Source of the DNA: an uncultured Gammaproteobacteria bacterium
Lineage (GTDB): Bacteria; Patescibacteriota; Patescibacteriia; Patescibacteriales; GWC2-42-12
Length of the DNA: 64,000 bases
Assembly: GCA_964467155.1 (NCBI GenBank)
Contig: CAYXNZ010000004.1
Span: 533 to 64,532, forward strand
Reading direction: 5' to 3'
Shown here: in pieces, positions 22,827 to 34,775 of the stretch
Layout of the letters: every line of letters begins with the position of its first letter
How positions within the stretch are numbered: position 1 is the stretch's first letter
Translations under genes and position numbers: made by a program
Notes under the pieces: model-generated
Told to the model about the DNA's origin: nothing
Database searches by the model: none
Seen by the model: only the letters and a program-made list of their open reading frames with translations

Positions 22827-24044
22827 ATGGATAAAATTAATATTTTAGGAATAAATGTAACAAAATTATCCAGAAGGGAGGCGATTGAAAATGTTAAATT
22901 TTTTTTATCTTCCAATAAACAACATCAAATTGTAACACCCAACCCAGAAATTATTTTAAATGCTATCGGAAACGATGAGGAATTATTTTATATTTTAAAT
23001 CACGCTGACTTGGCAGTACCAGACGGCTTTGGTTTAAATTGCGCTGCTTGGGCGATGTTCAAAAATCTACATCGTGTTGCTGGATCAGATTTGATTTTAG
23101 ATATTTTAAAAATAGCTGAAAAGAATAATAAAAAGGCTTTGGTGCTAGTGTGGGACAAAGGATTATCTTCTGCGCAAGATATTGAAATAATATTGAAACA
23201 AAAATTTTCAAATTTAGATGTTTTGGTAAAAGAAATTGACAGAAGAGGGGAGACGATTAATTTTACAGAAGTAAATGATTTTAAACCAGATTTAGTTATC
23301 ACTGGGCTCGGTGCACCTTGGCAAGAAAAATTTAATTTTCATAATTTGAAAAATATTCCTTCAGCGAAATTAGCAATTGGAGTAGGGGGGAGTTTTGACT
23401 TTTTAACTGGTAAAATTAAGCGCGCGCCAAAAGTTATGAAATTTATAGGTTTGGAATGGGTTTGGCGAGCATTGAATCAACCAAAAGGTGGGCGCATAGA
23501 AAGATTAAAAAGAATTTATAAAGCAGTTATTGTTTTTCCGCTTAAATTTATTCGTTGGTTTTTTATATTACCATTTTTTTATCGAAAGAATGTTGCTTGT
23601 TTGTTATATAAAAGAGAAGGAGATAAAATTTATGCTTTAATTGTTGAGCGTGAGTATAGTCCTGGCAATTGGCAACTGCCACAAGGAGGAAGAGACGATC
23701 AATCGATTATTGAAACTGGTGAAAGAGAGTTGAAGGAAGAAATAAATAATAATTTATTTAAAACAAAAAAAAGTTATCGTAAAGTAGCGAGGTATAAATT
23801 TTGTGATAAGAAAAACGGCAAATATTGTTATAAATATTGGGGTTACAAAGGTCAAAAGCAGGATTTGTACATAGCAGAATTTATTGGACAAGATAGTGAT
23901 ATAAAATTAAACTATTGGGAGCATATAAATTGGAGATGGGTGGATATTGATAAATTAGTAGCGGAAGTTAGTTCACGAAGAAAAGAGGCGACAGAAAAGT
24001 TTTATAAATTATTTAAAGATTATATATCTAAAAATTTGCAATAA
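22827..24044 (+). CDS. WecG/TagA/CpsF-family glycosyltransferase fused to a C-terminal Nudix hydrolase domain
   Basis: The N-terminal ~240 aa ('ILGINVT...IVTPNPEII...PDGFGL') fit the glycosyltransferase family. The C-terminal Nudix box is 'GGRDDQSIIETGERELKEEI'. Confidence 0.7.
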   Translation: MDKINILGINVTKLSRREAIENVKFFLSSNKQHQIVTPNPEIILNAIGNDEELFYILNHADLAVPDGFGLNCAAWAMFKNLHRVAGSDLILDILKIAEKNNKKALVLVWDKGLSSAQDIEIILKQKFSNLDVLVKEIDRRGETINFTEVNDFKPDLVITGLGAPWQEKFNFHNLKNIPSAKLAIGVGGSFDFLTGKIKRAPKVMKFIGLEWVWRALNQPKGGRIERLKRIYKAVIVFPLKFIRWFFILPFFYRKNVACLLYKREGDKIYALIVEREYSPGNWQLPQGGRDDQSIIETGERELKEEINNNLFKTKKSYRKVARYKFCDKKNGKYCYKYWGYKGQKQDLYIAEFIGQDSDIKLNYWEHINWRWVDIDKLVAEVSSRRKEATEKFYKLFKDYISKNLQ

Positions 24045-25524: not shown

Positions 25525-25544
25525 GTTGTGGGCATTGAAAAGAA

Positions 25545-25815
25545 ATAAAAAAAACTTGGGTATTAATTAGTGTTATCCAAGTAGTCTTTTCTCATCTAAA
25601 GATGAGCCTGAACTGGGAAATTAGATTAGTTATCACAGGTCAAACCTAACCCTTGGATTTTTTAAGGTATGGTTGAAAATTCACTTACATAGAGGCGGTC
25701 TTTTTACCCCGCTTGCTATGTCAGGCGGGGCTGATCGGTACTATGTGAATGGTCTTTGTCTGAAAGGGCATTGTGTGATCTGAAAGGATTGTCGCTGACG
25801 GGAGACCTTTTTTGT
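25545..25815 (+). ncRNA. Candidate structured RNA or cis-leader of unknown class
   Basis: Non-coding gap with several hairpins: ACTTGG..CCAAGT, CTCATC-TAAA-GATGAG and CCCCGC..GCGGGG. It ends in GGGAGACC + TTTTTT at 25801-25813. A hand count of 25681-25740 gives 32/60 G+C. Confidence 0.3.
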
Positions 25816-25847
25816 AAAATTGTTAATCATAAATTAATATAAAAATT

Positions 25848-26477
25848 ATGACTATTTCAGAATTATTTAAATTTAGTTTAAACAAAATAACAAAAATTTG
25901 TAATGACTATAATCCATTGAAAGAATATGGCACAAAAATAGAATTTAAAAAAGATTATTCAGAATATAAAAATATTTTAGAAAAAGAAGATATTAGAAAA
26001 ATTTATCATCTCACAGATTGTGGTAATATAGAATCAATAAAAAAGCATGGCGGTTTATATAGCAGACGGTATTGTGAAAAAAATAACATAAAAATCCATA
26101 AGTTAGGTGGCAACGATTCATCAAAAGAATTTGATAGTCAAGATAGTCTAAAGAATTCGGAGGATTATGTGCGTCTTTCTTTTGTTGATAATCACCCAAT
26201 GTTTTATGGAAAAAGCAATATTGTTTGTTTGGAAATTGACATTGAAGTTATTTATTGGGATACAACACATCATAGTGATATTAACGCTACTACTCAAAAA
26301 CAAAAGCCGATAATTGGTAAAGATATTGCTTGTTTTAAAAAGATAAAATTTGATATAATAAGAGGGGGATGGATAGGACACGATGATAGTGATATAAGAA
26401 AAAGCTATTATCAAGCCGAGATAATGGTAAAAACATTTATTCCTATAAAATTTATAAAAAATATAAATATACTATAA
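25848..26477 (+). CDS. DarT-like (DUF4433) ADP-ribosyltransferase
   Basis: Three blocks, 'IYHLTDCGNIESIKKHGGLY', 'EDYVRLSFVDNHPMFY' and 'YYQAEIMVKTFIPIKFI', parallel the DarT blocks IYHITHIDNL / DYVPFYF..SPMLY / KQAEFLV as I recall them. Confidence 0.6.
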   Translation: MTISELFKFSLNKITKICNDYNPLKEYGTKIEFKKDYSEYKNILEKEDIRKIYHLTDCGNIESIKKHGGLYSRRYCEKNNIKIHKLGGNDSSKEFDSQDSLKNSEDYVRLSFVDNHPMFYGKSNIVCLEIDIEVIYWDTTHHSDINATTQKQKPIIGKDIACFKKIKFDIIRGGWIGHDDSDIRKSYYQAEIMVKTFIPIKFIKNINIL

Positions 26478-27166
26478 TGGCAAATAGACCAATTTTTATC
26501 CCCAATAAAATCAATAAGCCTTTTGTTACGGAGCAAAATATTGAATTCAAATGGATTCCAGGTATGGCAGTTTCGCAAAAAATGAAAAATGTGAAATCTT
26601 TGCATAAAGCAGTATTGGAAAATCAAAATATTAGAGATATATTAGAAATATCTACTAAATCAGAATTGGAATTGGGCATAAGACTTAGCGCTTTTAATTT
26701 GCGACTAAATTTTGAAAATGGTAAAAAAATTACAGTTGAAGCTGCTTTTCAAGGAAGTAAAGTATTTGAACATGGTGGACCATATCGGAATTTATACTTA
26801 ATGAGCGGACGCGAAATTAAAAAAGATGAACGATTGAAACAATCAGGGGTGTTAATAGGATTTAATTATCAAAATGAGAAATGGCCGCTTGAACCGAAAA
26901 CTGCATTTTATGATTGGTTGTATTTAAAAGCATTATGTGAAAATAAATCGCTTAGCGATAAACTTATGTCTTTCGCTGGGTTTTCAGATATTGAGTTTAA
27001 TCCTAAAAAATCATTGAATTGCCAAGCACGGTCAGCCGCTCTATATCTAGCAATATATAATAAAGTTAATCTTAGTGATTTATTAAGAGATAAAAATAAA
27101 TTTATTAAAGAACTGTATTTGCAATTTAATCCAAAAATTAAAGCAAAACAAAACACTTTATTTTAA
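26477..27166 (+). CDS. Partner of the DarT-like gene; possibly a divergent NADAR (YbiA/DUF1768)-like hydrolase/antitoxin
   Basis: TAATG stop/start overlap with the upstream gene. 'LSAFN..NGKKITVEAAFQGSKVF' resembles YbiA 'FSNF..DGKTWPTSEHYFQAQKF'. No macrodomain motif is present. Confidence 0.35.
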   Translation: MANRPIFIPNKINKPFVTEQNIEFKWIPGMAVSQKMKNVKSLHKAVLENQNIRDILEISTKSELELGIRLSAFNLRLNFENGKKITVEAAFQGSKVFEHGGPYRNLYLMSGREIKKDERLKQSGVLIGFNYQNEKWPLEPKTAFYDWLYLKALCENKSLSDKLMSFAGFSDIEFNPKKSLNCQARSAALYLAIYNKVNLSDLLRDKNKFIKELYLQFNPKIKAKQNTLF

Positions 27167-27215
27167 TTTGCAGTTTATAATTTTATAAAAAATTTTACTA
27201 CAAACAATTTCATTT

Positions 27216-27830
27216 ATGAAAATTAAAAATTGGTTTTTCATTTTTTCATTTTTATTTATTTTAATTCCAGCTGTTCCTATTTTTGCCGGCAATTTATATA
27301 ATTCAAGTTTACAGGGAATAGCACGTGAACAGGGTTGGTTAGCGGAACATATCGGTGGTACATGTAAATATCGTGAGCCAAGCAATGCAGAAATACAAAA
27401 ATTGGAAAAATATTGCAAAGGCTATGAGGGTACTATTTGTTTTAGTGCCGTAGAAAATTTAATTGAGTTTAAAAATTGCAGCACATACGGCAAAGTAATC
27501 GGTATTAAAGATAATAATGTAGTATTTGAACAGAATAATATAAATAATGATGGAATAGATATAATGAAGGACAATGAAAAAATTTTAATAGAGAAAGAAA
27601 ATCTTGTAAATATGGCTATTTCGGGACTATTTAAGTTTATTTTAAACAACAAAAATAAAATTTCATCTCTATTTTCTTTAATTGTAGCTATAGCTATTTT
27701 AAGTGCTAATTATTCACAATGGTGGCATATAACCTATGATGGTAAAATGATAACAAAGAAATGGGTAAAAATATTATTTGGCATAAGCATTTTATTTTTA
27801 ATTATAGCAGGGATTTTAATCCTTCTTTAG
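27216..27830 (+). CDS. Membrane-anchored hypothetical protein (signal peptide plus C-terminal TM helices)
   Basis: Hydrophobic N-terminus, Cys-containing ectodomain and two C-terminal hydrophobic helices. Confidence 0.45.
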   Translation: MKIKNWFFIFSFLFILIPAVPIFAGNLYNSSLQGIAREQGWLAEHIGGTCKYREPSNAEIQKLEKYCKGYEGTICFSAVENLIEFKNCSTYGKVIGIKDNNVVFEQNNINNDGIDIMKDNEKILIEKENLVNMAISGLFKFILNNKNKISSLFSLIVAIAILSANYSQWWHITYDGKMITKKWVKILFGISILFLIIAGILILL

Positions 27831-27837
27831 AATTTAT

Positions 27838-28182
27838 ATGTCTTCTTATTCATTCAAAATTCAAAAAGTTGATCATCCCGGAGATTTGCATGTCCATGTA
27901 TATTATAATGAAGGCAAAAGTCGAAAATTGTTGGGTAAATATAGTATGATTAAATTAAAACCCTTACCCGGTAGCAAATATCAATTGTCCAATAAGGAAA
28001 AAGAAATTCTTAGAAGTTGGTTAAGTAAGCCAGAACAAATAAAAAAATTACAAGATTGTTTAAAGTCAACTGTTTTTAATACACATGAAGTAATTTCAGA
28101 ATTGATGAAGCATGGCCAAATTATAAACAAAAAAGGTGGAACATTTATTACAATTAATATACCGATTGGTGAAAGATTATGA
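27838..28182 (+). CDS. Small hypothetical protein
   Basis: 114-aa ORF starting 7 nt after the upstream gene. 'HPGDLHVHVYY' is faintly DUF4160-like. Confidence 0.4.
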   Translation: MSSYSFKIQKVDHPGDLHVHVYYNEGKSRKLLGKYSMIKLKPLPGSKYQLSNKEKEILRSWLSKPEQIKKLQDCLKSTVFNTHEVISELMKHGQIINKKGGTFITINIPIGERL

Positions 28183-28227
28183 AAAAGTAAGAGATAATTA
28201 ATTTTTAAATAATTTAATTTTAAATTT

Positions 28228-29490
28228 ATGAAAAAACAATTTACAATTTTATCAATTTTAATTTTTGTGGTATTTAGTTATTTCACATTAACCGAACAAG
28301 TATACGCAGAAATAAACAGCAATGATTATCAACTAGACAGCGAACAAATTCAATATTCGATAACACCTTTAGAATTTAATGAAGGAGACAGATCGCCAAT
28401 TGAATTAAAAATCAAAATATTATCTTCAGATTTTGATTATACTGAAATTAGATCCGTCTACTTTCATTTTTATAATTATCCAGATGATATAGATTTTTCT
28501 TTTTCTAAAGGGATTTTTGAAAACGATTGGGATATAAACAATAGAGAGTTTACATTCGATTTTATGATTGATAACTGGTCTGTGAGGCGTAATGCTAAAT
28601 TAGTTTCAATTAATTACGGCATTAAATATTTAAATACTTCGTATTCTATCCCGATTGACAATGGGTCACAAATAATTGTTGTCCCGAAAGTTCCAGTCGA
28701 CTGTACTTTTTTTACATACTCCGATTGGTCAACTTGTTTCGTTAATGGCCAGCAAACACGAACCGTTATTTATTCTAGCCCAAGCGGTTGTAGCGGTGGT
28801 AGCCCTATTTTAACACAATCGTGTATCTACTCTCCGACCTGCACATTATGGACATATTCCGATTGGAGCGAATGCATAAATGGACAACAAACAAGAAGTA
28901 TCACATCCTCTTCTCCTGAGAATTGTATTGACGGTAATCCTATTTTAAGCCAAACATGTCAGGTGAAAATAGAAATAAATAATACTGATGATATGAATAA
29001 TAGTGATCAAATAACAGAAAATAATAATACTAATAATTTCAGTAATCAAAACTATTCTAACAGCCAAAGCGTAATCCAAGAAGAAAAATCTCTAATAACC
29101 AAAATAGACAAAAATTTATCAAAAAGAGTAAGCGGTAATATTTTATTGCAAGTAGAAAAAAACGGCGAAGGGTGGTATGTTTATCCAGATAACCAGAAAA
29201 AATATTATTTAGGCAGGCCGGCAGACGCATTCAGCATAATGCGGAATTTAGGATTAGGAATTGCACACAGCGAATTGAATAATTATCTTAATTCAACATT
29301 CCCAAGCAGACTGTCAGGAAAAATAATGCTGGATGTTGAAAAAAACGGTGAAGCGTATTATGTTAACCCCAGTGATTTAAAAGGATATTATCTTGATAGG
29401 CCGGCAGACGCTTTTAGAATAATGAGAGAATTAGGATTAGGCATTACTAATACTGATATAAGAAAAATTGACGTTGGGGAAGTTAAATAA
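28228..29490 (+). CDS. Secreted repeat protein: two Cys-containing WS-type repeats and a duplicated C-terminal ~48-aa module
   Basis: Signal peptide present. 'YSDWSTC..NGQQTRTV' and 'YSDWSEC.INGQQTRSI' form one repeat pair. 'VEKNGE.WYV.P....YYLGRPADAF.IMR.LGLGI' occurs twice. Confidence 0.55.
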   Translation: MKKQFTILSILIFVVFSYFTLTEQVYAEINSNDYQLDSEQIQYSITPLEFNEGDRSPIELKIKILSSDFDYTEIRSVYFHFYNYPDDIDFSFSKGIFENDWDINNREFTFDFMIDNWSVRRNAKLVSINYGIKYLNTSYSIPIDNGSQIIVVPKVPVDCTFFTYSDWSTCFVNGQQTRTVIYSSPSGCSGGSPILTQSCIYSPTCTLWTYSDWSECINGQQTRSITSSSPENCIDGNPILSQTCQVKIEINNTDDMNNSDQITENNNTNNFSNQNYSNSQSVIQEEKSLITKIDKNLSKRVSGNILLQVEKNGEGWYVYPDNQKKYYLGRPADAFSIMRNLGLGIAHSELNNYLNSTFPSRLSGKIMLDVEKNGEAYYVNPSDLKGYYLDRPADAFRIMRELGLGITNTDIRKIDVGEVK

Positions 29491-29607
29491 AATCCTACGT
29501 GGATAACAAAAAAATACGCCAATGGCATAAAACAATTAATATAATAATTGTTTAAGATGGATGATATGGACTAATACATGCCGCCGTTTTTTTGTTTCAA
29601 TATATTA

Positions 29608-30849: not shown

Positions 30850-31392
30850 ATGAAAAAAAATAAAATAAATAAAAATGGTTTTACTTTAATAGAACTTTTG
30901 GTTGTTATCAGTATAATAGGTTTTCTCGCAGTAGCTTCAGTAGTTATATTCAATAATGCTAGAATGAAGGGGCGAGATGCTCAAAGAATAGTTAATATTA
31001 GCCAAATAAGCAAAGCATTAGACTTATATTACGACAAATATAGCCATTGGCCAGATCCTTCTTCTGATGAATGCAGTGAAGGCTGGGATGAGGGTTTTTG
31101 TGAAGAAGATGAAGGAGACGATTTTATTCAAGCTTTAAAAAGTGAAGGTCTAATGAATCAAACCCCGGGTGATCCACTTTTTTCTGGCGCTCAAGCTTTC
31201 AAATATTACGTTTACGAAGAGGGAAGTGAAGGTTGTGATTCAAGCAAAGGTAAGTTCTACGTCCTAGGGATTACCGATCTTGAAACAGACGTTAGACCAA
31301 CAACAAAATACAGTGGCAGTGGTTTCTCTTGTCCTAATCGTGATTGGCAGGATGAGTTTGATTATGTTGTTGGTAAGTTTGAAGTCAATTAA
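30850..31392 (+). CDS. Type IV pilin-like protein (prepilin N-terminal methylation motif)
   Basis: 'NGFTLIELLVVISIIGFLA' is a class III signal / N-methylation site. Confidence 0.75.
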   Translation: MKKNKINKNGFTLIELLVVISIIGFLAVASVVIFNNARMKGRDAQRIVNISQISKALDLYYDKYSHWPDPSSDECSEGWDEGFCEEDEGDDFIQALKSEGLMNQTPGDPLFSGAQAFKYYVYEEGSEGCDSSKGKFYVLGITDLETDVRPTTKYSGSGFSCPNRDWQDEFDYVVGKFEVN

Positions 31393-31426
31393 GATGATTT
31401 AACGGAAAAACAATTTTATATTATTT

Positions 31427-31460
31427 AAACCGCGTTTTTATGTTAACGCGGTTTTTTTTG
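31427..31460 (+). terminator. Intrinsic terminator after the pilin gene
   Basis: AAACCGCGTT...AACGCGGTTT hairpin followed by a T-run. Confidence 0.7.
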
Positions 31461-31964
31461 TGCAATAGGGTGTCAGGATAGAGAGGAGTAAACTAAATGA
31501 TTTACTTGCCAGAGTATATTTATTGGAATTTAAATTATTTTTTTAAATATATAAAATTTTATTTATTTTTTTTAAATCTATTTTTATTAGATAAGAGCCA
31601 ACTCAATAGAGGATATAATATAAATGTATTATAATAGCGTCGCACAATATAACTTATGCGACGCTACAGTATTGATTTTGGTGTATTTTGAGGTAGCTCT
31701 AGTATATAGTAAGCCCTAATATATGTATTTCTGGATTAAACATTAACAATACCTTTAATAATAGTAAAAATAATCCAGCCGATAGTATTGCGTAAACTAT
31801 TAATGCCAATATAAATATTGATACAAATACTTTTTCCATTTTTATTTATTTTAATCGTTTTATTATCTCTTTACCCTCATTATATCAAATATGATGTTTT
31901 TTTTAAATAGCTTTACTATTCCTCTACCCTACACTACTCTTTTCACATTATGTGTCGCAAAATA

Positions 31965-32837
31965 TTATTCATAAAAAATTAATTCTCCATATCTTAAATC
32001 AATTTTTTTAAGTTTAATATAGTCATCTTTTAATGTTTGATTGATTAGAATGTTAAACTTGTTTATTTGACCTTCAAGCTGTTCCTGTGGGTTAAACTTT
32101 ATTATTGGCCCTTGAATAATCATTACTTTTACTGTATTTAGCTCATCGTCTAGCAAAAACTTTTCAATTTTGAAGGGATAATTATTTTTATTTAAGGTTT
32201 CAAATAGTTCAATAATAAATTTCAATTGATTCTTATCTTGTTCGTTAATATTCTTTTCAATAATATAACTAGATGATTGATTATCAATTAGGGGAAAATT
32301 CTTTTGAGTTATTTCTAATGGTTCGACCTCTTCAATGATATTGCCATCACTATCTATATAGTAGTAAATGTCATTTTCATGCCAGATGGCTGAATTTTTT
32401 GTTTCTACGATAGATGTAATAATGGTTGATGGGAAATCTTTTTTTATTATAATTTTTTCAAGACAATATTTATCTTTTAGATCATCAATTAATGTCTGCC
32501 TATTGAATAAGAAAATATTTTTTTGAATGTTTAAATGTGATGACATCTGTTTACTTATTATGTCTTGTATATCTTTTTGCTGTATTCGTTCGTTGCCTAT
32601 GATATTTATTTCGGTAATTTCAAAAACTGGTGAAAAGAAAAAGAACCATGATAATCCAAAAAGCAAGACTACAATCTCGGTAGCTATAAGTTTAATTCTG
32701 CGTGAACATTTTGTTGAGAAATTTTTTTTGGTTCGAGATTTTTTAAAAAAAGGATTACGATACTCTTTTTTATTATAAACATAATGCTTGCCAGCACGTT
32801 TTAGAGTTCGTTTTTTAGGATAATTGTTATTAAGCAT
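31965..32837 (-). CDS. ftsQ: FtsQ/DivIB-like cell-division protein
   Basis: Basic N-terminus, one TM helix, then a POTRA-like 'ITEINIIGNERI' start. It lies next to Mur/Ddl genes. Confidence 0.55.
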   Translation of the reverse strand: MLNNNYPKKRTLKRAGKHYVYNKKEYRNPFFKKSRTKKNFSTKCSRRIKLIATEIVVLLFGLSWFFFFSPVFEITEINIIGNERIQQKDIQDIISKQMSSHLNIQKNIFLFNRQTLIDDLKDKYCLEKIIIKKDFPSTIITSIVETKNSAIWHENDIYYYIDSDGNIIEEVEPLEITQKNFPLIDNQSSSYIIEKNINEQDKNQLKFIIELFETLNKNNYPFKIEKFLLDDELNTVKVMIIQGPIIKFNPQEQLEGQINKFNILINQTLKDDYIKLKKIDLRYGELIFYE

Positions 32838-33602
32838 TTAGTTTATAAATTTATCAATTTTGTGATTGATTATTTCAGAAATTAAATTACTGTAAATATG
32901 ATGATGACCAAAACGATTTATTGTCCGAGTTTTTTGACTAGTTGGTTTTATAAGATTAAATTTTTGTCCATTTGGAGTTTTAATGATTTCGTCTGCTTGC
33001 CAGCACTCCCCTACTTCTTTAATTTTTGTATTTATACCAAAAAATATTAATTCAGCTTTTGATTTATATTTTAAATTTTTTATAGCAGTGTTATCTTTGT
33101 TTAGCAAAATTAATCCACCAGAAGATGTTCTGTTTAATAGATATTCATACTCCCCTATTAATTCATCCATATCGTTAAAAGCTTCGCGATATCTCTGAGT
33201 TATATCTGTTATTATAACAATTTTTGGTTGGATAATGGTTAATAAAAATTTCATGTCTCCCGGATCAGAAATTCCCAATTCTAGTACTAGTATTTTAGGA
33301 AAATTTTTGCTAAAAATAGCCAAAAAAGACCTAAATATTATTTTTACCCACAAATTGTAAGAGTTATATCCGCTAGGTAAATTAAGTATGGCTAGAGGTA
33401 ATCCAATTTCAGTATTAAAACTTTTAGGATTGGATCTCACATTAAAATTTCGTTTAGCTAACGATTGTTTAATTTCATCTTTAACAAAAGTTTTATTGGT
33501 ACTTCCGGCAATAGCAATGACCAGAGGAGAATGTATGGCTAATATTATTTTGGTTAAAAATTTTAAATAATATTTTAGAATTGTTTTCAAGAATATTTTC
33601 AT
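32838..33602 (-). CDS. Degenerate MurF-like Mur-ligase paralogue lacking the C-terminal domain
   Basis: Collinear with the first ~250 aa of the window's MurF: 'IAIAGSTNKT' vs 'GVTGSVGKTS', 'FNTEIGLPLA' vs 'YNNEIGLPLT', 'LVLELGISDPGDM' vs 'LVLEMGVDRPGDM'. Confidence 0.55.
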   Translation of the reverse strand: MKIFLKTILKYYLKFLTKIILAIHSPLVIAIAGSTNKTFVKDEIKQSLAKRNFNVRSNPKSFNTEIGLPLAILNLPSGYNSYNLWVKIIFRSFLAIFSKNFPKILVLELGISDPGDMKFLLTIIQPKIVIITDITQRYREAFNDMDELIGEYEYLLNRTSSGGLILLNKDNTAIKNLKYKSKAELIFFGINTKIKEVGECWQADEIIKTPNGQKFNLIKPTSQKTRTINRFGHHHIYSNLISEIINHKIDKFIN

Positions 33603-33614
33603 AGATTATTATTT

Positions 33615-34775
33615 TTATTTAAAATATTCATCCATTCTATTAAAGGCTTCATTAATGGTTTTTTCATCACGGCCAAAATTGATTCTTACATGACCTTCGC
33701 CATTCGGACCAAATGCCATGCCAGGCACAACCGCAACTTGAATTTTTTTGAGTAAATCAATTGAAAACATCCATGAATCGTTTGTCGTCTTTATTCTTGG
33801 AAAAACAAAATATGAACTGTCTGGTTTTATGTAAGAAAATGTTTTATTTAGTTTGTCTAATCTGTGACAAGCTAAATCTCTTCTTCTCTTGTATGCTTGC
33901 CAGAAGAAATCAATATCCTTGTCACCCATTTCTAGCGCACCCATGGCGGCGTATTGAGAAATGACCGGTGCACAAGTAACTAAGCAATCATGTACTTTTA
34001 ATATTTCTTTTATGTTTTTTTCGTCACTGTGTAAATAACCAACTCGCCAACCAGTCATAGCATAAGCTTTGGAAAAACTAAACAATCTCACAACGCGATG
34101 TCTTAGTTCCTTAACCTCTGCTAAGGAAAAAATAGGTTCATTAGCTATCTTTTTATTGTAATCAATCAAATCTTTATAAACCTCGTCTGATATCAAGTAG
34201 AGATTATGTTTTTTTGCTAATTCGGCTAAACCAAGTAACTGTTGTTTATTGTAAATTGTACCAGTTGGATTATTGGGGTTACAATAAAATATTGCTTTAG
34301 TTTTTTCAGTTATCAACTCTTCATATTTATTAAGTTCAAAAGTCCAGCCAGAATCTTCATTCAAGGGTACAAAAACTGGTTTGCAACCAGCCAACACAAT
34401 AACTTCTCGATAAGAAGTATAGGTTGGCTCAGGAATCAATATTTCGTCGCCTGGATTTGTCAAAGCTAAAATAGTCGCAGTAATACCCTCTATTGAGCCA
34501 GCAGTAACAATTATTTCTTTCTGCCAATCATAATACATATTTTCTTTTGCTAAGGAGTATTCAATTAGCTCTCTTAGCTCAGGTAAGCCAGGCGAAAGTG
34601 AGTATTGTGCGACTACGCCTCTATTTAATGCATTTTCCACTCTCCTTTTAATACATCCGGGCGTATCAAAGCTTGGAATGCCTTGAGCTAGAGAAACTAC
34701 ATTTGGATATTTAGTAGCTTCCAACTCGATTTGTTTAATAATAGATAGTCTTAAATCTTTTACTCTGTCAAACAT
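33615..34775 (-). CDS. PLP-dependent aminotransferase, class I/II
   Basis: 'SFSKAYAMTGWRVGY' is the Lys-PLP motif and 'NPNNPTG' is also present. Confidence 0.8.
   Translation of the reverse strand: MFDRVKDLRLSIIKQIELEATKYPNVVSLAQGIPSFDTPGCIKRRVENALNRGVVAQYSLSPGLPELRELIEYSLAKENMYYDWQKEIIVTAGSIEGITATILALTNPGDEILIPEPTYTSYREVIVLAGCKPVFVPLNEDSGWTFELNKYEELITEKTKAIFYCNPNNPTGTIYNKQQLLGLAELAKKHNLYLISDEVYKDLIDYNKKIANEPIFSLAEVKELRHRVVRLFSFSKAYAMTGWRVGYLHSDEKNIKEILKVHDCLVTCAPVISQYAAMGALEMGDKDIDFFWQAYKRRRDLACHRLDKLNKTFSYIKPDSSYFVFPRIKTTNDSWMFSIDLLKKIQVAVVPGMAFGPNGEGHVRINFGRDEKTINEAFNRMDEYFK

Follow-up and report, generated by a model that had tools for sequence, protein, structure and literature searches.

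Does the chromosome of a Patescibacteria bacterium, a member of the candidate phyla radiation (CPR), encode a toxin that ADP-ribosylates DNA together with the enzyme that would reverse the modification? The question is raised by two adjoining genes in a stretch of 64,000 nucleotides, here called the window (positions 533 to 64,532 of contig CAYXNZ010000004.1, assembly GCA_964467155.1), for which a first-pass annotation made from the letters of the DNA had proposed a DarT-like ADP-ribosyltransferase coupled to a partner of another fold. Both open reading frames (ORFs) are present as described, on the + strand. Gene 1 (25848-26477, 209 amino acids) encodes a predicted DarT-family ADP-ribosyltransferase toxin acting on single-stranded DNA (ssDNA), recognized by Pfam, PADLOC and Foldseek. 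Gene 2 (26477-27166, + strand, 229 amino acids) encodes a predicted DarT1-associated NADAR antitoxin of the ADP-ribosyl-guanine glycohydrolase family, recognized by its match to Pfam family PF22397 and to the solved structure 8BAT. We consider it very probable that the two genes, DarT and NADAR, constitute a DarTG1-type toxin-antitoxin (TA) module on a small island that the chromosome acquired horizontally.

A DarT gene overlapping a NADAR gene

The two reading frames share a single base. At the junction (...CTA TAA TGG...) the stop codon of gene 1 (TAA, 26475-26477) contributes its final A to the start codon of gene 2 (ATG, 26477-26479), generating the sequence TAATG at 26475-26479 on the + strand. 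Translational coupling had been proposed from this motif; the overlap of one nucleotide is verified in the sequence, and is repeated in two related loci, L004 and L137. The toxin-first order is the norm, with NADAR lying downstream of DarT in 67 of 69 NADAR-linked loci. The DNA is ~28% G+C, and the occurrence of two adjoining ORFs that match their Pfam families with E = 5.2e-22 (gene 1) and 2.3e-90 (gene 2) is far beyond chance.

Gene 1 matches the Pfam DarT family PF14487 over residues 53-206 with a score of 79 bits (cutoff 22.5), and the PADLOC DarT model with E = 4e-15. The profile searches therefore uphold the earlier reading of the gene as DarT/DUF4433. A clade profile comprising gene 1 and seven relatives, which was required for reaching the solved DarT structures, matches C7 DarT1 (8BAQ, E = 1.8e-8), Thermosipho DarTG (7OMU, 1.3e-7) and Thermus DarT2 (7OMV, 4e-5) in the PDB. 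We also modeled gene 1 with AlphaFold2, obtaining a predicted local distance difference test score (pLDDT) of 73 and a predicted template-modeling score (pTM) of 0.72, with residues 1-28 unreliable. The significant Foldseek matches of this model are eight DarT structures only, including 7OMY, 7YK3, 7OMU and 8BAQ, with E values from 9e-7 to 3e-5 and template-modeling (TM) scores of 0.51-0.57. A relative of gene 1 from a sibling metagenome-assembled genome (MAG) is already annotated as DarT-family.

The three blocks from which DarT was first suspected are present at residues 52-71 (IYHLTDCGNIESIKKHGGLY), 105-120 (EDYVRLSFVDNHPMFY) and 187-203 (YYQAEIMVKTFIPIKFI), and they hold the NAD-binding H-x-T motif (H54, T56), the M118 position and the catalytic Q-A-E (E191). 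For comparison we used an alignment of 166 members of the gene 1 clade (class B, defined below), 53 C7-like DarT1s (class A), C7 DarT1 and Thermus DarT2. Within it H54, T56, Q189 and E191 align to H17, T19, Q150 and E152 of C7 DarT1, and S63 and M118 to S26 and M71. The glutamate put forward as the candidate catalytic residue is thus E191 (codon GAG, 26418-26420, + strand), the catalytic glutamate of the ADP-ribosyltransferase (ART) fold aligned with C7 E152; there is Glu in this column in 53/53 class A and 165/166 class B sequences. N146 corresponds to C7 N104, the DarT1-type Asn at the base-coordinating position, where DarT2 has His. D96 is invariant across the clade and is aligned to C7 D54, an equivalence inferred from the alignment with a register shift of one residue (R-x-x-D against R-x-D). 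For the column of C7 Ser63 (the Tyr of H-Y-E) a manual alignment of YVRLSF with AICLSV gives S111, and MAFFT gives R109. The extra Arg in the YVRLSF block of gene 1 is nearly invariant.

The ends of the protein differ from those of the solved DarTs. An N-terminal extension of ~50 amino acids had been claimed, and this requires correction, because the Pfam model starts late, at residue 53, while the alignments with homologs and with C7 DarT1 already begin at residue ~30-34; the unique part is ~30 amino acids. The C-terminus lies 18 residues past the catalytic Glu, and the solved DarTs run ~35-45 residues further.

Gene 2 matches PF22397 ("DarT1-associated NADAR antitoxin") with 302 bits against a cutoff of 27, spanning positions 1-210 of the 212 in the profile, and the solved NADAR of Geobacter lovleyi (8BAT) with E = 5.9e-61. 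This is its sole Pfam match and no macrodomain is found in it, in agreement with the prediction of a NADAR-like partner without a macrodomain. The sequence blocks on which that prediction rested are present and include E88 and K95 of the NADAR active site. In C7 NADAR, E88, K95 and D171 are required for hydrolysis of ADP-ribosyl-guanine, and K115 for rescue (Schuller et al. 2023, PMC11543638). Gene 2 keeps E88, K95, K115 and D171, and also E173, at the same positions, as judged against 8BAT and L065, a C7-like Erwinia NADAR whose DarT scores 249 bits to C7 DarT1. Its homologs number ~8,000 database proteins, with identities typically ~50-60%. The view that the partner was divergent and its chemistry open does not hold, given 50-57% identity to typical members and the intact E88, K95, K115 and D171. 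By these comparisons gene 2 is a canonical member of its family, and the divergent component of the pair is the toxin. No model in PADLOC-DB v2.0.0 matches gene 2, so that only the DarT half of the pair is detectable with that resource.

Both genes are under purifying selection. The ratio of nonsynonymous to synonymous substitution rates (dN/dS) is 0.22 for gene 1, compared with its 78%-identical ortholog in L004, and 0.13 for gene 2, indicating strong constraint on the latter. This argues against a decaying toxin gene.

Two classes of DarT and the target of gene 1

At least two DarT classes, very unlike each other, are partnered by antitoxins of the NADAR type. We compared the DarT neighbors of 80 NADAR loci drawn from GTDB genomes. 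The majority of the partners are C7-like, score 80-250 bits to C7 DarT1 and are undetected by gene 1; these we call class A. A minority, class B, amounts to ~10 clear loci that score 50-125 bits to gene 1 and <=32 bits to C7 DarT1, and seven further NADAR loci give weak matches to gene 1 (~18-30 bits). In neighbor-joining trees the bootstrap support is 99% for the grouping of gene 1 with L004 and 85% for class A as a clade of its own; it is low inside class B, at 7% for the crown clade and 44% for class B monophyly.

In an exhaustive search the relatives of gene 1 amounted to 1,042 clusters at 50% identity, and 685 of these have E<=1e-10. Long proteins with a C-terminal DarT domain predominate (median length 338 amino acids, with a median of 124 residues preceding the domain). 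Sampling from the DarT side, we find that among 80 metagenomic class-B loci DUF6939 (PF22075, ~240 bits) flanks 75, and NADAR adjoins one (L137). The DUF6939 partners score only 17-25 bits against the NADAR-DarT1 model. Profile-profile comparison with hhalign aligns DUF6939 with NADAR at a probability of 96% and E = 4.6e-9, including the active-site block VE..QG.KVFE. On this basis DUF6939 appears to be a distant relative of NADAR, and class-B DarT with DUF6939 appears to be a third, uncharacterised DarT-antitoxin pairing. A literature search for DUF6939 found no paper mentioning the family, and one for published DarT3 or DarTG3 subfamilies matched only citation superscripts or unrelated terms.

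The architecture of the class-B loci is varied (examples are L084 2504-3949, L113 1441-2976, L087 1190-3070, L148 858-2687 and L091 3725-5203). Many fusions have coiled-coil or uncharacterised N-terminal regions of 70-520 amino acids, often ~230 amino acids, and some class-B DarTs have a C-terminal region of ~300 amino acids with no Pfam match. Example coordinates for the class-B/DUF6939 loci (set L084-L163) are L091 3016-3723 and L102 698-1285. In two loci (L084 and L113) DUF6939 is encoded upstream, and downstream there is an additional gene of ~270 amino acids without a Pfam match. Several DUF6939-linked loci continue with a gene of ~490 amino acids, the product of which starts with a hydrophobic, membrane-like segment.

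How might the pair in the window function? Gene 1 would use NAD+ to transfer ADP-ribose to a base of ssDNA, most likely at the N2 amino group of guanine, blocking replication. Gene 2 would be translated off the shared transcript via the overlapping stop and start codons, and would hydrolyze the bond between ADP-ribose and guanine so that the cell survives. A disturbed balance, such as might follow phage infection or loss of the cassette, would let ADP-ribosylation of the DNA arrest growth, and the outcome would be abortive infection or an addiction module. The comparisons establish to which families the two proteins belong, their catalytic residues, the arrangement of the operon, the purifying selection and the setting in an inserted or mobile segment; enzymatic activity, preference for guanine, toxicity with its neutralisation, and biological role are predicted from them. 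The C7 and G. lovleyi DarT1-NADAR pairs have been established experimentally as TA systems acting on guanine (PMC11543638). For gene 1, guanine specificity is suggested by the signature of Asn146 with Asp96, and by a NADAR partner with D171 and K115.

A number of observations weigh against this assignment. Gene 1 scores 39.8 against the NCBIfam toxin_DarT equivalog, for which the cutoff is 150. A single-sequence search of the PDB with gene 1 gave no match at E<=1, and phmmer against C7 DarT1 gives only 12.7 bits, compared with the 80-250 of class A partners. By profile and by fold alike, gene 1 is about equally near to DarT1 and DarT2. It has Lys93 (codon AAA, 26124-26126, + strand) where C7 DarT1 has the essential Arg52, a column that is Arg in 52/52 aligned class A sequences, and Leu55 in place of the efficiency residue Phe18. 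In C7 DarT1 the R52A mutation abolishes toxicity and F18 is required for efficiency (PMC11543638). The DarT of L004 shares both the Lys and the Leu. The guanine-contacting residues K74 and Y75 are not kept in gene 1, although they are only ~50% conserved in class A itself. Lastly, the clade of gene 1 pairs mostly with DUF6939 and not with NADAR, so the specificity of C7 DarT1 is not simply transferable. Members of the C7-type subfamily are 35-40% identical to C7 DarT1. Taken on its sequence, gene 1 is best placed within the DarT family and outside the characterised C7-type DarT1 subfamily, because neither its similarity to C7 DarT1 nor its residue at the Arg52 column is that of the subfamily.

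Some of these points would suit a class-B DarT that modifies another base (thymine, like DarT2, or cytosine) or another nucleic-acid context, with NADAR reversing the reaction. We regard this as unlikely. It draws on the near equidistance of gene 1 from the solved structures (8BAQ 1.8e-8 against 7OMU 1.3e-7, with the folds alike), on the absence of K74 and Y75, on Lys for Arg52 and on the prevalence of DUF6939 as partner in the clade; moreover, PMC12945103 reports that some NADARs strip ADP-ribose from cytidine too. However, at the base-coordinating position gene 1 has Asn (N146) like the guanine-specific DarT1, rather than the His of DarT2. In addition Asp96, aligned to D54, is invariant, and gene 2 belongs to the DarT1-associated NADAR clade with its clade-specific D171 and K115. 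We also considered DarT as the subject of the work on cytidine ADP-ribosylation, and rejected it, as the toxins of that paper (PMC12945103) are of the pierisin type.

A more far-reaching proposal would make gene 1 a functionally distinct DarT class, with a specificity or mechanism unlike those of DarT1 and DarT2, and/or would make the structured RNA upstream (see below) a leader that controls the expression of the TA genes in cis. The case for a distinct class is drawn from Lys in place of the catalytic Arg, the extra Arg of YVRLSF, the lack of the C-terminal segment and the DUF6939-paired clade. We think this proposal doubtful.

It might alternatively be supposed that the toxin is attenuated or dead through the equivalents of R52K and F18L, and that the pair is a relic, or a mild DNA-modification or regulatory module, rather than a lethal TA or defence system. 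The C7 mutants described above lend this some weight, as do the Lys and Leu of gene 1 and L004 set beside the uniform Arg of class A, and PMC12170906 describes M. tuberculosis DarTG as serving growth control. Yet the column is relaxed in class B, where it is R in 125, K in 17, H in 12, Q in 4 and W in 3 sequences (R 6, K 3 and H 4 among those paired with NADAR). Lys93 is therefore a recurrent variant and no private lesion; Lys or His recurs in ~17% of class B representatives, NADAR-paired ones included, and Lys for Arg is a conservative replacement. Gene 1 has moreover been maintained (dN/dS 0.22), and an intact antitoxin has been retained beside it (dN/dS 0.13). A dead or attenuated toxin thus seems quite unlikely to us, and we retain the DarTG1-type TA module as the preferred reading.

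The inserted island and its RNA element

The pair lies on an accessory insertion between gltX and a gene for an M23 peptidase. The corresponding empty site is found in L164 (GCA_964553705.1), where a gltX 76% identical to that of the window is followed by 39 nucleotides (2335-2373) and then by the M23 peptidase gene. Past M23, L164 continues with a pilin-like gene, then with three genes on the minus strand (290, 254 and 386 amino acids) for a POTRA-domain protein, a Mur ligase and an aminotransferase; the backbone of the window is the same from 29578 onward. The shared backbone and the empty site in L164 define 25525-29577 as an insertion of ~4 kb. It holds the RNA element, DarT, NADAR and ORFs 27216-27830, 27838-28182 and 28228-29490. 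A search for direct or inverted repeats flanking the island found none, only A+T-rich chance matches. The named homologs of gltX (63-69% identity) come solely from Patescibacteria/Parcubacteria MAGs or from MAGs labelled "bacterium". In two further contigs with a gltX 91% identical to that of the window (L166 and L167) the sequence ends 68 nucleotides past gltX, suggesting that this position varies between strains.

L004, the nearest relative of the cassette, comes from a Patescibacteria MAG and sits in a different neighborhood, with a different gene following. Upstream it has a small pair resembling a toxin and a helix-turn-helix antitoxin, together with an IS200/RayT-like transposase, identified by reading ORF translations only. 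The three ORFs downstream of the pair in the window had been tied to it, a connection that does not survive, for they are absent beside the cassette in L004. It follows that the mobile unit is the two-gene cassette, and that the three ORFs are unrelated cargo. They had also been described as membrane or secreted proteins; all three ORFs are there, but in the 114-amino-acid product of 27838-28182 neither a signal peptide nor a membrane segment is obvious by eye. L003, more distantly related and also paired with NADAR, is an ankyrin-DarT fusion beside a type I restriction-modification gene and a MazE gene.

That the pair is phage or mobile-element cargo for counter-defence, with NADAR as an anti-DarT and no host TA system, is very improbable: PMC11825919 reports orphan NADAR-like enzymes by which phages act against DarTG1, and the pair is on an inserted island, but this NADAR is no orphan, being translationally coupled to DarT, PHROGs matched 0/5 of the island proteins, a class-B DarT relative occurs in 1 of 2.9 million viral contigs, and no integrase or phage structural gene is found among the island ORFs.

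The spacer between gltX and darT is 323 nucleotides long, and contains a structured, G+C-richer element on the + strand (25643-25819). A structured region had been noted ahead of the pair, and it can now be described as a near-threshold match to LOOT, supported by Rfam, by its folding and by its conservation in L004. The Rfam LOOT model (RF03000) matches 25643-25791 over its full length with E = 4.2e-7, although the score of 43.6 bits is below the gathering threshold of 46.4. The element has three hairpins capped by GAAA, with a fold z-score of -2.8. Its 3' end is GGGAGACC followed by T6, a terminator-like tail 35 nucleotides before the ATG of darT.

The element is conserved directly upstream of the darT of L004, through GGGAGACC-T6-GTAAA (to 25819), although what precedes it there is unrelated. 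Only 14 nucleotides separate the element from the ATG in L004. A separate conserved promoter would not fit into so short a gap, so that transcription would pass from the element into darT. L004 also has a second, partial copy (628-782, + strand; nhmmer, E = 2.7e-11), upstream of an ORF (712-1041) that by eye is Bro-N/antirepressor-like. Since this copy is at a different gene, the element is not dedicated to DarT, and is repeated in this Patescibacteria lineage. Against the LOOT model the copies of L004 give a weak score (one at 17.8 bits) or none. Near nine other NADAR-linked class-B loci no Rfam LOOT match is found, and the linkage of RNA to toxin is therefore lineage-specific and no general feature of DarT cassettes. 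We regard the element as an RNA-like intergenic repeat peculiar to this lineage, which might serve the cassette as a 5' leader or be an independent small RNA. A scan for promoters and terminators gave 40 sites against 26 expected, which is uninformative in DNA so rich in A+T, and a description of the LOOT motif is absent from the main text of Weinberg et al. 2017.

L004 has a further feature at 1282-1357, a near-perfect palindromic hairpin of ~76 nucleotides inside the ORF region of the IS200/RayT-like transposase. Its matches to microRNA families in Rfam are spurious, and it may be related to repetitive extragenic palindromic (REP) sequences or to transposon ends.

Several features of the window are recorded here for completeness. 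The 420-amino-acid product of ORF 28228-29490 (+ strand) has a hydrophobic, signal-peptide-like N-terminus and no Pfam or PHROGs match; the ORF contains a 129-nucleotide repeat at 29134-29262 and 29317-29445, and a Cys-rich module at 28788 and 28923. ORF 22827-24044 (+ strand, 405 amino acids) encodes a WecG/TagA-type glycosyltransferase (PF03808) fused to a NUDIX domain (PF00293), from the annotation of an identical gene in L002. The cumulative GC skew peaks at ~32-34 kb, and most genes flip from + to - near 31-32 kb (window ~31000-34000). Such convergence near 31-34 kb would be in keeping with a replication terminus, or else with a rearrangement.

Significance and comparison with known systems

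A DNA-ADP-ribosylating pair in a minimal bacterium had been singled out as notable. DarT and NADAR are indeed found together in a CPR genome, but the pair is of a kind already described (DarTG1, PMC11543638). The DarT-NADAR system and the canonical antitoxin are known; the unusual part is the divergent class of toxin. The locus extends this system of reversible DNA ADP-ribosylation to an ultra-small, probably host-dependent CPR bacterium, and a literature search found no paper naming DarTG together with Patescibacteria. The Pfam family label, a "thymidine" ADP-ribosyltransferase, probably mis-states the target of gene 1. Class B is large, and we found no biochemical characterisation of it in the literature. 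The cassette of the window is short and its toxin has a single domain, making it a convenient representative with which to study the class.

The closest characterised system is DarTG1 of E. coli C7 and Geobacter lovleyi (Schuller et al. 2023, PMC11543638; also LeRoux et al. 2022, as cited by the former). The gene order is the same, darT then NADAR. The antitoxins belong to the same family, PF22397, with identical E88, K95, K115 and D171, and the toxins have in common H-x-T, Met71, Asn104, Asp54 and the Glu of Q-x-E. Gene 1 differs in that a single-sequence PDB search does not detect the relationship, in Lys for Arg52 and Leu for Phe18, in an extra N-terminal segment of ~30 amino acids and in a shorter C-terminus, and the host here is a CPR bacterium.

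The resemblance to DarTG2, comprising DarT2 with DarG (Thermus and M. tuberculosis; 7OMV, 7YK3), lies in the DarT fold (Foldseek E ~1e-6, TM 0.52-0.57), the Pfam family and the toxin-first operon. In contrast to that system, gene 2 is without a macrodomain, and gene 1 has Asn instead of His119 and, by the manual alignment, Ser for Tyr71 of H-Y-E (R109 by MAFFT). DarT2 modifies the N3 of thymidine.

The DarT domains closest to gene 1, at 37-51% identity, are those of the class-B DarT and DUF6939 pairs of gut, rumen and environmental metagenomes. There too the genes are tightly linked or overlapping and the partner is distantly NADAR-like. The partner is nevertheless DUF6939 and no bona fide NADAR-DarT1, and most of the toxins have long N- or C-terminal extensions that are absent from gene 1.

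Lastly, in the myxobacterial YarT-YbiA system (PMC11125620) an ART toxin is likewise neutralised by a hydrolase of the NADAR superfamily. YarT, however, is said to have no relationship to DarT, and the antitoxin of that system is of the YbiA subfamily rather than of the DarT1-associated clade in which gene 2 is found.

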